Shown here piece after piece: positions 24,159-28,104 of a DNA stretch of 64,000 nt (positions are counted from its first letter, which is position 1; the number at the start of each line of letters is the position of its first letter). Source of the DNA: Steroidobacteraceae bacterium (lineage in GTDB: Bacteria; Pseudomonadota; Gammaproteobacteria; Steroidobacterales; Steroidobacteraceae). The stretch lies in NCBI GenBank assembly GCA_036266795.1, contig DATAXJ010000025.1:101632-165631 (forward strand), in the 5' to 3' direction. The position numbers and the translations under genes were made by a program. The notes under the pieces were generated by a model. It saw only the letters and a program-made list of their open reading frames with translations, did not search any database and was not told where the DNA came from.

Positions 24159-25753
24159 TAGGTGCGCAGCGCCGGCGGCGGCGGCGTGTATTGATAGAGC
24201 CAGGTTTCGCTGAGCGGCTGGCTACCGAGTGCCAGAAACAAGCGCAGATTGATCGGCTCGCTACTCGCGTCGGTGAGCTTCAGATCGAACATGGCACGCC
24301 AGCCGCGCACCTGCTGCAGGGGTCGTGCGGATAGCAGCTCGATCTGCCCGCGCGAAGTGCTGACCATGGCCTGCACCTCGGCGCCGGCGGCGAGCATGGA
24401 GAAATCCCCGCCCACGAAGTCAACGACGAACCGCCACGAAAAGTAGCTGCGCTTCTGGCCGACGACGCCACCGATACCGGTGCGCGTCGCATAGACCTGC
24501 GCCAGGTGGCAGGGCGTCGGATTATAGCGGCACCAATACAGCCGATAGGCGAACAGCAGCTCCTGCCCGGCTTGCGGCTTGGCGGCCGGATTCCAGAACG
24601 CCACGATGTTATCGAAGGTCTCGTCGGCTGCAGGAATCTCCACGAGCATGACCGAGCCATGCCCCCAGTTGCTCTTGGGCTCGACCCAGACGCTCGGACG
24701 CAGGTTATAGAACACCCCGTCATCCTGGTAGTCGGCGAAACGCCGGTCGCGCTGCATGAGGCCGAAGCCGCGCGGTGCATTGTCGAAGAAGGAGTTCACG
24801 CGCACGACGTTGGGATTGACCAGCGGTCGCCATAGCCACTCACCGGCACCGTTGTGGATCTGCAGGCCGTCGGAATCGTGAATCGCGGGGCGCCAATCCT
24901 CGGACAGCCGGTGCTGGCTCTGGTCGTAGTAGAACATGCTGGTGCCCGGCGCGATCCCCAGCCGCTCGATGGCCCGACGCGGATAGAGCGCCGCATCCAC
25001 GTCCATGACCAGGGTATCGCCCGTCCCGATGATGAAGCGATAGGCGCCGGTGGTGCTGGGCGAGTCGAGCAGCCCATACACGGTCAGCTGGCTGGAATCG
25101 GGCGAGGGCCGCTCCAGATAATAGGCAACGAAGTCGGGGAACTCCTCGGGCTGGGGCAGGCCGGTGTCGATGGCCAGCCCGCGCTGTGACATGCCGTACT
25201 GCATGTCACCGTCGACCGCGCGAAAATAGGATGCGCCCTGGAAAGCGGCAATATCGCGCTGCCAGTCGCTATGAAACAGCAGCCTAAAGCCCGCGAAACC
25301 GAGTTCGGGGGACAGGCGACGCCAGTTCACGCCGCTGCGCGTGTAGTCGAACAGCGCCGGATCGAAGGCCAGCTGCTGCGCCATGCCACCGGTGACCTCG
25401 TAGAGCCGCACGGGCTTCTTGACCGTGAAGCCGAGGTGAAAGAAACGCGCCTGGAAGCGCAGCCCCTCGTTGGCCCAGAGCGAGTGATCCTCGCGGAATT
25501 GGATCGACTCCCACTGATCCCAGCTCAGGTGCGCGATCGGCGCCGGCAGCTGAGTGGTCGGTCCACGGTACGCCGTGGCCGCCATCGAGCGCGCCAGACC
25601 CTTGAGGCGGGCATAGTCAAAGGGCTGCGCAGCCCCCAGTCGCTTGAGCCCCCCGGGGCGCGGCGCGGGGCGCTCCGCGGCACCCAGGGCTGCGGGAAAG
25701 CGTGCGGCAGCCGCCAGAACGGCGCCGGACTGCAAAAATCGACGGCGGGACAT
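24155..25753 (-). CDS. opgD: Periplasmic glucan biosynthesis protein (OpgD/MdoD type, Tat signal)
   Basis: 532 aa; MSRRRFLQSGAVLAAAA twin-arginine leader; MdoG/MdoD family body. Confidence 0.85.
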   Translation of the reverse strand: MSRRRFLQSGAVLAAAARFPAALGAAERPAPRPGGLKRLGAAQPFDYARLKGLARSMAATAYRGPTTQLPAPIAHLSWDQWESIQFREDHSLWANEGLRFQARFFHLGFTVKKPVRLYEVTGGMAQQLAFDPALFDYTRSGVNWRRLSPELGFAGFRLLFHSDWQRDIAAFQGASYFRAVDGDMQYGMSQRGLAIDTGLPQPEEFPDFVAYYLERPSPDSSQLTVYGLLDSPSTTGAYRFIIGTGDTLVMDVDAALYPRRAIERLGIAPGTSMFYYDQSQHRLSEDWRPAIHDSDGLQIHNGAGEWLWRPLVNPNVVRVNSFFDNAPRGFGLMQRDRRFADYQDDGVFYNLRPSVWVEPKSNWGHGSVMLVEIPAADETFDNIVAFWNPAAKPQAGQELLFAYRLYWCRYNPTPCHLAQVYATRTGIGGVVGQKRSYFSWRFVVDFVGGDFSMLAAGAEVQAMVSTSRGQIELLSARPLQQVRGWRAMFDLKLTDASSEPINLRLFLALGSQPLSETWLYQYTPPPPALRTY

Positions 25754-25943
25754 GCGCTCATTGTAGCGCGAGGGTTACGGCAACGCTGACCGCCAACGCC
25801 GCTCGTCGGCTTCGTGAAAGGCTGCCGTCCGCCCTGCCGTGCGGCTGATTGACAGCGGCGCCGGGTGATCGTATTAGCGGCGGTCGCCGACCGGGAGGCG
25901 CGGCTATAATTGCCGGCCCCTCCCCGCTCACGGAGTCCGCCGC

Positions 25944-27212
25944 ATGAACAGCGCCATTCGCACGGTGCGTGCCCTGGAGATTCTCGACTCGCGCGGCACC
26001 CCGACGCTGCGCGTCGCCGTGCATCTGGAGAACGGCCTCATTGGCACGGCCTCGGTGCCCTCAGGCGCCTCCACGGGCGAGCATGAGGCCGTGGAGCTGC
26101 GCGACGGCGATGCCGCGCGCTATGGCGGCAAGGGCGTACGCCGCGCGGTCGCCAACGTCAATGAGCTCATCGCGCCGCGCCTCATCGGCGCCGATCCGGC
26201 TGAGCAGGGACGACTGGATCTGCTGATGCTCGAGCTTGACGGCACGCCCAACAAATCCCGCCTGGGCGCGAACGCCATCCTCGGTGTCTCGCAGGCACTG
26301 GCCTGTGCCGCAGCGGCCGCCGCCGGGCTACCGCTGTATGCCTATCTCGGCGGCGCCGGGGCGCGCCGCCTGCCCGTCCCGCTGATGAACGTGATCAATG
26401 GAGGCAAGCACGCGGACTCGAGCCTGGATCTGCAGGAGTTCATGATCGTGCCGCACGGGGCCTCGAGCTTTTCGGAGGCGCTACGCCACGGCGCGGAAAC
26501 CTTCCAGGCGCTCAAGGGACTACTGCACCAGCGTGGCCTGAGCACCGCGGTGGGGGACGAAGGCGGGTTCGCCCCGCAGCTGCAGAGCAACGAGCAGGCC
26601 TGCGAGCTGATCGTGCTGGCGATCGAGCGGGCCAAGCTCAAGCCTGGCAAGGACGTCTCGATCGCGCTGGATGCCGCCGCCTCCTCGTTCTTCGAGGCAG
26701 GCAGCTATCGGCTGACGCGCAGCCGTCAAGGCGACAAGAGCGCGGAGCAGATGACTGAGCTGTATCGCAGCTGGGCCGAACGCTACCCGATCATCTCGCT
26801 GGAGGATGGCCTGGCCGAAAATGACTGGCAGGGCTTTCGCGCCCAGACCGAAGCACTTGGTCAGCGCATGCAGATCGTCGGCGATGACCTGCTGGTCACC
26901 AATCCCATCTATATCCGGCGCGCCATCAGCGAGCGCGCCTGCACCGCGGCGCTGATCAAACTGAACCAGATCGGCACGGTCAGCGAGACCATCGATGCGA
27001 TCAGCCTGTGCCGTCGCGCTGGTTGGGGCTTCATTATTTCCCACCGCTCGGGCGAGACCGAGGACGGCTTCATCGCCGATTTCGCCGTGGCCATGGGCGG
27101 CGGTCAGATCAAGACCGGCTCGCTGTGTCGTTCCGAGCGCATTGCCAAATACAACCGCCTGCTGGAGATCGAGCAGGAGCTGGGCCCGGCAGCCCTGTAC
27201 GGCAACAACTGA
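25944..27212 (+). CDS. eno: Enolase (phosphopyruvate hydratase)
   Basis: 422 aa; [70 protein letters not shown]. Confidence 0.9.
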
Positions 27213-27233
27213 GACAACTAGACTGCCGATCAC

Positions 27234-27285
27234 GGCGATGGCATACCTCCCTGAACCGTCGCTCTGCGGCTGAAGATGCCGCGAC
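27234..27285 (+). promoter_or_regulatory. Candidate fluoride riboswitch (crcB motif) in the eno-crcB spacer
   Basis: GGCGAUGGCAUACCUCC-CUGAACC-GUCGC-UCU-GCGGC-UGAAGAUGCC-GCGAC. It resembles the known pattern GGnGAUGGnnUnCnCC...AACCGC(stem)GCUGAUGAUGCCUAC. Loop GGCAU (27241-27245) is complementary to AUGCC (27276-27280), which would form the pseudoknot. There are two deviations from the consensus. Confidence 0.6.
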
Positions 27286-27298
27286 GGAGGGACGGATA

Positions 27299-27766
27299 AT
27301 GTGGAAGTCGGTCATTGCCATTTCCATCGGCGCCACCGCTGGCGCGCTGCTGCGCTGGGTACTGGGCAATCGGCTCAATGCCCTTTTCCCGACATTGCCA
27401 CTGGGTACGCTGGCGGCCAATCTCATAGGCGGCTACATCATCGGGGCTGCCTTGGCCTTCTTCGCAGTGTTCTCGACGCTGGCACCGGAATGGCGCCTGC
27501 TGGTCATCACCGGCTTCTGCGGCGGCCTGACGACTTTCTCCACCTTCTCGGCCGAAGTCACCACCCTGATGCAGCAGGGGCGCATGCTCGCCGCCGGCGC
27601 CGTGATCGGCACACACCTGGCGGGCTCCCTGCTGATGACCTTTGCGGGCATCGGTACGGTCAATTGGCTGCACACGCGCTCGGGGGGCCGCGCAGTCGAC
27701 ACGGCGCTGCAGATGTCGGCGCGCAGCGCGACCCCTACGGCCGCGCCGGGGGATGAAACAGTATGA
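27299..27766 (+). CDS. crcB: Fluoride ion channel CrcB/FluC (with a roughly 30-aa C-terminal extension)
   Basis: [20 protein letters not shown]...[14 protein letters not shown]...[15 protein letters not shown]; GGAGG at 27286-27290. Confidence 0.85.
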
Positions 27767-28104
27767 AGGGCAGCCTGCTGCGATTCCATGTACCCGAGGG
27801 GCAGCGCCATCAGGGCATACTGCTGTGGGAATGGCTGCTGCGCCGGGGCAGCGAGCTCGGGGCACGCGGCGGCTCGGCGCTTCGGCCCGTCGCCGGATTC
27901 GGGCGCCACCACGTGCTGCACGAGCAGAAATTCTTCGAGCTCGCCGGCAGCCTCACTGTAGAAGTCGAATTACTGCTGAGCGAGGAGCAGCTGCAGCGGC
28001 TGCTCGAGTTGCTGGAAAGTACCACCATCCGTCTGTTCTTCACGCGTACCGAGGTGACTTTTGGCATCGTCAACCCGGATGCGGAGGATGATCGATTAAC
28101 GTGA
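27763..28104 (+). CDS. DUF190 domain protein (commonly linked to crcB)
   Basis: 113 aa; ATGA overlap with the crcB stop; ...[31 protein letters not shown]... Confidence 0.75.

Follow-up and report, generated by a model that had tools for sequence, protein, structure and literature searches.

A probable recently decayed fluoride riboswitch between eno and crcB in a Steroidobacteraceae genome

The eno-crcB locus and its aptamer-like segment

The window is the whole 64-kb stretch of DNA that was analyzed. It belongs to a 3.8-Mb Steroidobacteraceae metagenome-assembled genome (MAG) in 61 contigs. The MAG is 92.7% complete with 3.3% contamination. The locus of interest contains eno, crcB, and a DUF190 gene in that order, with a short leader before crcB. 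The features are as follows.

25944 to 27212, + strand: eno (PF00113, 379 bits; PF03952, 185 bits)
27213 to 27233, + strand: remnant of the spacer between eno and crcB, where the upstream deletion is joined (alignment with relatives)
27234 to 27281, + strand: degenerate fluoride-riboswitch aptamer (RF01734, 16.1 bits, model positions 10 to 55)
27234 to 27237 and 27247 to 27250, + strand: P1, with G27234-C27250, G27235-C27249, a C27236.U27248 mismatch, and G27237-C27247
27236, + strand: A-to-C change, by which the third P1 pair, with U27248, becomes C.U in place of A-U (NC line of cmscan; GGAG in 14 of 14 relatives)
27240 to 27244, + strand: pseudoknot 5' strand, GGCAU
27256 to 27265, + strand: predicted anti-Shine-Dalgarno segment CCGUCGCUCU, CCGUC-G-CUCU, spanning the junction and the 5' strand and loop of P3 (thermodynamic folding)
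27258 to 27262 and 27266 to 27270, + strand: P3, GUCGC-UCU-GCGGC after AACCG, aligned to the P3 of RF01734
27270 to 27275, + strand: core CUGAAG, with G27281 as position 48
27274, + strand: U-to-A change at the equivalent of U41, CUGAUGA to CUGAAGA (U in 14 of 14 relatives)
27276 to 27280, + strand: pseudoknot 3' strand, AUGCC
27280 to 27281, + strand: junction of a 53- to 56-nt downstream deletion, with GCC microhomology (alignment with relatives)
27286 to 27295, + strand: Shine-Dalgarno (SD) region of crcB, GGAGGGACGG, 8 nt 5' of the ATG at 27299, its GGAG bases predicted to be paired
27299 to 27766, + strand: crcB (Fluc fluoride channel), intact (PF02537, 91.7 bits)
27763 to 28104, + strand: DUF190 gene (PF02641, 58.4 bits), overlapping crcB by 4 nt (ATGA, 27763 to 27766)

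The gene at 25944 to 27212 gave the only Enolase_C match in the MAG. It is the sole enolase of the genome and is therefore a housekeeping gene. We considered whether it might be an additional, fluoride-dedicated paralog and rejected this, as no other enolase is present. The adjacency of eno and crcB is kept in the closest relatives. A scan of 25700 to 26000 for a second riboswitch upstream of eno returned only noise.

The genome contains one copy of crcB, at 27299 to 27766, and two CLC genes elsewhere. A preliminary description of the DNA had named the gene after the leader crcB, and the PF02537 match bears this out. The CrcB protein has 155 amino acids, and its Pfam domain stops at residue 118. 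It carries a C-terminal extension of about 35 amino acids that is rich in Ala, Arg, and Thr and overlaps the start of the DUF190 gene. The extension is common to close relatives, which can be aligned over all 155 amino acids.

The preliminary description compared the leader with the crcB-motif fluoride aptamer and quoted it as GGCGAUGGCAUACCUCC CUGAACC GUCGC-UCU-GCGGC UGAAGAUGCC GCGAC. This string is present as written at 27234 to 27285. Its placements of AUGCC (27276 to 27280), CCUCC (27246 to 27250), GGAGG (27286 to 27290), and the ATG (27299 to 27301) are correct. GGCAU had been placed one base too far downstream, at 27241 to 27245, and the gap between SD and ATG had been counted as 9 nt where it is 8. 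The two deviations from the consensus that it reported, the C.U mismatch in P1 and UGAAGAUG in place of UGAUGAUG, are real, and cmscan flags the first. It overlooked a third deviation in the core, G27281 where U48 is expected. It also overlooked two deletions, one on each flank of the aptamer.

No match was found in the whole 64-kb window with Rfam 15 at gathering thresholds. A permissive scan of 251 nt with RF01734 matched 27234 to 27280 at 16.1 bits and flagged a noncanonical P1 pair. The curated gathering score of RF01734 is 34 bits. The preliminary description had proposed such a search and had named a score under the gathering threshold as evidence against its model; 16.1 bits is such a score. 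Genome-wide, it is not significant (E = 0.12), and another site reaches 17 bits. Other subthreshold RF01734 matches in the genome and the genus were considered as further decayed copies and set aside, as they appear to be chance matches within coding sequence.

The segment shares with RF01734 the layout of P1, P3, and pseudoknot, the core GAUGGCAU...AACCG...CUGA.GAUGCC, and crcB and DUF190 downstream. The P3 hairpin is present at 27258 to 27270. The complementarity of GGCAU and AUGCC that could form the pseudoknot is intact in the sequence, as had been proposed, and aptamers from other Gammaproteobacteria have the same type of pairing. The location is also that of a fluoride riboswitch, in the 5' leader of a fluoride-toxicity gene (a group that includes crcB, eriC-F, eno, and others). 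The aptamer ends 18 nt before the crcB ATG, and DUF190 follows crcB. The segment differs from RF01734 in its score (16.1 versus 34 bits) and in three places in the structure. P1 has a C.U mismatch as the third of its four pairs, A27274 stands for U41, and G27281 stands for U48, so that A40 (A27273) is present without its linchpin partner. Judged by its sequence, 27234 to 27281 falls outside the canonical RF01734 definition in CM score, P1 pair, U41, and linchpin.

Orthologous leaders and the changes in the window

Canonical fluoride riboswitches were found in 9 of 37 genomes of the same genus, with scores of 40 to 59 bits. In a DNA search, the eno 3' end, the leader, and crcB of three of the relatives (G071, G007, and G078) matched the window as three pieces split by additional DNA. 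We read and aligned these loci. They have the order eno, leader, crcB, with the canonical aptamer GGAGAUGGCAUACCUCCCUGAACCGUCGCUCUGCGGCUGAUGAUGCCU(A/G)C. In total, four relatives have a canonical riboswitch of 39 to 45 bits at the same eno-crcB junction. The relatives are Steroidobacteraceae soil MAGs. The canonical form is also present on four metagenome contigs. Orthologous eno-crcB leaders score 39.3 to 45.1 bits with RF01734, and other genus members score 44 to 52 bits. The comparison set contained 14 sequences, 10 from genus relatives and 4 from metagenome contigs.

The closest match to the segment is the aptamer of G078, which scores 45.1 bits and lies at the same eno-crcB junction. It is identical to 27234 to 27280 at 45 of 47 positions. 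The two aptamer cores differ by two substitutions only, yet G078 scores 29 bits higher. The kinship with the crcB-motif aptamer is upheld by this identity and by the synteny. By position and sequence, the segment descends from a canonical RF01734 member.

Four changes set the window apart from its relatives. Two are the substitutions at 27236 and 27274. The third is the downstream deletion, which lies directly 3' of AUGCC and took most of the expression platform, namely its apical part. As a result of this deletion, G27281 occupies position 48, where all relatives have the invariant U. The fourth is an upstream deletion of about 70 to 100 nt between the eno stop codon and the aptamer, by which a conserved promoter-like element was lost. 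Unlike its orthologs, the window therefore has neither its own promoter nor a platform spacer. The distance from the start of the aptamer to the start codon is 65 nt, compared with 116 to 138 nt in the relatives.

The promoter-like element of the relatives reads TTGCAT, 17 nt, and TGcAAGACT, with GCAATTGCATCGCC..TCTCTGCAAGACT conserved. The window keeps AGACTGCC (27220 to 27227), a leftover of the promoter's -10 region in the orthologs. Across the genus (relatives L069 to L080), such an element lies about 10 to 45 nt upstream of each aptamer. Its genus-wide form is TTGCAT or TTGTGT, 17 nt, and then (TG)nAAGACT, AACACT, or TAGACT.

Both deletions and both substitutions are unique to the window's form in the alignment. 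Neither the same deletion nor the A41 variant was found elsewhere in the genome collection, the metagenome collection, or a sample of 401 genomes of the class. In those 401 genomes, a core pattern with U41 gave 13 matches, 12 of them credible aptamers, all 12 with U41. The same pattern with a base other than U at position 41 matched the window and four chance-looking sites only. These four sites have no P1 and no pseudoknot complementarity.

In standard numbering, the top pair of the pseudoknot is U17-G42. By this pair, G42 corresponds to G27275, position 41 to A27274, A40 to A27273, and position 48 to G27281. The U41A mutant of the Bacillus cereus crcB riboswitch serves as the ligand-unresponsive control; its antitermination stays at 16% whether NaF is added or not, and it gives no response in cells (PMC11077080). 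The A40-U48 reverse-Hoogsteen linchpin is needed for the fluoride-locked, stably docked state, and U48A abolishes that state (PMC8752731). The window shares with these mutants the base change at position 41 and the loss of the A40-U48 partner. The B. cereus mutants are engineered single changes in a transcriptional (terminator) riboswitch (PMC11077080, PMC8752731), whereas the changes in the window are natural, are combined, and stand in a translational (SD-pairing) context, with G rather than A at position 48. By analogy, the published mutations predict that the aptamer of the window has lost its function. As read from the sequence, it combines the classic dead mutation (U41A), a lost linchpin partner, and a weakened P1. 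U41A, the dead control of the laboratories, has here arisen naturally.

The sequence of the leader is reproduced in other assemblies. Two other contigs code for exactly this CrcB protein, a 211-kb contig from a JGI metagenome and a Logan contig of SRR11836411 that was assembled independently. They match the window with 0 mismatches over 3.5 and 2.1 kb, respectively, and the whole leader lies within the identical stretch of each.

Fourfold degenerate sites of eno, crcB, and DUF190 diverge by 0.27 to 0.46 from the three closest relatives. The aptamer diverges at 2 of 47 positions. This difference indicates that purifying selection acted on the aptamer through most of the period since divergence and that its inactivation, dated in this way from sequence divergence, is recent.

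Transcription and predicted folding of the leader

The interval from eno to crcB contains nothing that resembles a sigma70 promoter, nor any terminator-like site on the plus strand. As eno is the sole, housekeeping enolase, the simplest inference is that crcB and DUF190 are transcribed by read-through from eno. On this sequence evidence, crcB probably now depends on such read-through. A weak promoter that uses TAGACT (27219 to 27224) is possible.

The preliminary description had proposed that CCUCC, the P1 3' strand, sequesters GGAGG of the SD when fluoride is absent. The probability of this pairing is about 0 in all thermodynamic ensembles computed, in four sequence contexts. The folds pair 27256 to 27265 with the SD region GGAG-G-GACGG (27286 to 27295), with a predicted probability of 0.83 to 1.0 in the four contexts. 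The SD helix alone is predicted at -13.3 kcal/mol, compared with -5.8 kcal/mol for P3.

The complementarity between the SD and the P3 5' strand is 8 to 9 of 10 in the six closest orthologs, at an equal distance from the start codon. One metagenome contig (L087) has a C-G to U-A double change within the SD helix. The complementarity is absent from more distant members of the genus, in which P3 differs. In the minimum free energy (MFE) folds of the orthologs, the segment that is deleted in the window is merely the apical domain of a long SD helix. When the aptamer fold is forced, the predicted accessibility of the SD rises from 0.22 to 0.62. The MFE fold and the forced-aptamer fold are predicted to differ in free energy by about 25 kcal/mol in the window and by 17 to 20 kcal/mol in the orthologs. 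From the intact orthologs, the clade seems to have a translational platform of its own, built on pairing between the SD and the P3 5' strand.

The MFE folds also use a pairing with the coding sequence. In G071 (L069, 375 to 384) and G007 (L070, reverse strand), codons 7 to 10 of crcB read UGCCAUCUCC, which is complementary at all 10 nt to the 5' half of the aptamer, GGAGAUGGCA. The equivalent site in the window is 27317 to 27326. As a conserved feature, this pairing was rejected, since the partner is constrained by the protein. The coding partner varies among CUCC, CUGC, and UUCC without compensation, and the variation is seen in G078, L087, and the window. The pairing is thus probably coincidental and due to the conserved A-I-S/C-I motif.

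Probable decay of the riboswitch and other readings

In our reading, 27234 to 27281 is orthologous to canonical fluoride riboswitches but has recently decayed and most likely no longer responds to fluoride. From the sequence comparisons, we put the probability of this reading at about 0.8. The ancestral order would have been that of the sister species: eno, a spacer of about 70 to 100 nt ending in the promoter, an aptamer of about 52 nt, a platform of about 55 nt, the SD, crcB, and DUF190. One deletion took the spacer and the promoter, along with any eno terminator that the spacer may hold. Another took the platform and swapped the linchpin U48 for G. Two point substitutions struck P1 and U41. 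crcB and DUF190 probably now lie at the far end of the transcript of the housekeeping eno. The relic would be no more than a structured leader of these genes, held in a fixed stem, with the SD (GGAG-G-GACGG) paired to the former junction and P3 5' strand (CCGUC-G-CUCU). CrcB would then be made from an abundantly transcribed mRNA at a level that is independent of fluoride and probably attenuated. In the intact orthologs, the same SD helix is probably the OFF state of a translational switch. It would compete there with P3, and folding of the aptamer would free the SD.

The translational ON switch triggered by fluoride that the preliminary description put forward is unlikely in the window, because the CM score is below threshold, U41 is A and U48 is lost, and the CCUCC:GGAGG pairing has a probability of about 0. 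It probably describes the intact orthologs in the sister species.

Some observations count against decay. The aptamer is 96% identical to orthologs that look functional. P3, the pseudoknot complementarity, and the SD helix are all intact in sequence, so residual function is possible. The effects of U41A and U48A are known from a transcriptional B. cereus riboswitch rather than from a translational context of the Steroidobacteraceae type, and position 48 is G here. A dead aptamer combined with a predicted stable SD helix would also mean poor translation of crcB, which is odd for the sole, intact Fluc gene.

Another reading is a compact translational ON switch that still works, in which the model of the preliminary description would hold with a corrected anti-SD. 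Fluoride-stabilized P1, P3, and pseudoknot would hold CCGUCGCUCU and free the SD, and the deletion would only have shortened a dispensable apical hairpin. The helix between the SD and the P3 5' strand is indeed common to orthologs with canonical aptamers, and the deleted segment is only its predicted apex there. P3 and the 5-bp pseudoknot appear to be kept in the sequence, the modeled SD accessibility rises on forcing the aptamer fold, and the aptamer is conserved far above neutral sites. We nevertheless consider this reading unlikely. It has to accommodate three independent changes at essential positions (U41A, the loss of the U48 linchpin, and the P1 mismatch), a score 29 bits under that of a relative that is otherwise identical over 27234 to 27280, a variant that occurs in no other lineage examined, and a larger predicted energy gap between the MFE and aptamer folds. 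A bolder form of it, which we judge quite unlikely, is that the shortened element is a natural minimal translational fluoride sensor of about 62 nt from P1 to SD that tolerates A41 and G48. Direct competition between P3 and the SD helix would perhaps replace the linchpin mechanism. If so, the requirements for U41 and for A40-U48 would hold only for platforms of the terminator type.

Other riboswitch classes have known variants in which core nucleotides have changed and the ligand is a new one. The window might likewise hold an aptamer with altered ligand specificity, or one selected for a purely structural role that is independent of fluoride, and its otherwise conserved sequence would fit. 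Such a variant is confined here to a single lineage rather than to a conserved family, the downstream genes remain crcB and DUF190, and the P1 mismatch and the linchpin loss break the structure without a coherent remodeling of the pocket. We regard it as very improbable. The same holds for an assembly or consensus artefact, by which the organism would really have a canonical riboswitch and the MAG, with its 61 contigs and 3.3% contamination, would be misassembled; the JGI and SRR11836411 contigs agree with it without a mismatch, and the contig that holds both deletion junctions is long and contiguous, with the genes on either side intact. A chance resemblance of an ordinary GC-rich leader to the crcB motif draws on the genome-wide E value, the 17-bit match elsewhere, and the other weak matches in the genus that are apparently due to chance in coding sequence. 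It is excluded for practical purposes, not by the Rfam score but by the orthology alignment, in which 45 of 47 positions agree with a canonical aptamer at the orthologous eno-crcB junction and the synteny is shared with the 39- to 45-bit riboswitches of four relatives.

The decay reading makes for an ordinary finding, a known family (RF01734) and a common type of evolutionary loss. It also carries a warning for annotators: even with a motif that convinces the eye and the expected gene behind it, a copy can be dead. The RF01734 threshold correctly excluded the copy in the window. The intact and decayed leaders together form a natural mutant series for studies of translational fluoride riboswitches.

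Loss of the riboswitch appears, from the genome sequences, to be common in the genus. In 15 genus genomes with a crcB DNA match, there is no above-threshold RF01734 match anywhere, and a crcB without a riboswitch appears to be the majority state. Two genomes, G009 (L075) and G035 (L076), have the order eno, an additional gene, and crcB, with no aptamer between. By its motif, the extra open reading frame of G009 looks HIT-like (HAHLHLIPR), and that of G035 resembles a histidine phosphatase (RHGH). Like the window, these loci have crcB downstream of eno without a functional aptamer and are presumably not regulated by fluoride. They have an extra gene and no recognizable aptamer, whereas the window keeps a 96% identical remnant. 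This remnant indicates that the loss was caught at an early stage, a small evolutionary snapshot of riboswitch loss in a soil genus.

In G007 (C98, 2011 to 4699) and G035 (C92, 911 to 4304, and C285, 8722 to 8965), canonical fluoride riboswitches occur in groups of two or three that span no more than a few kilobases, some of them in divergent orientation. They suggest fluoride-resistance islands made of several operons.
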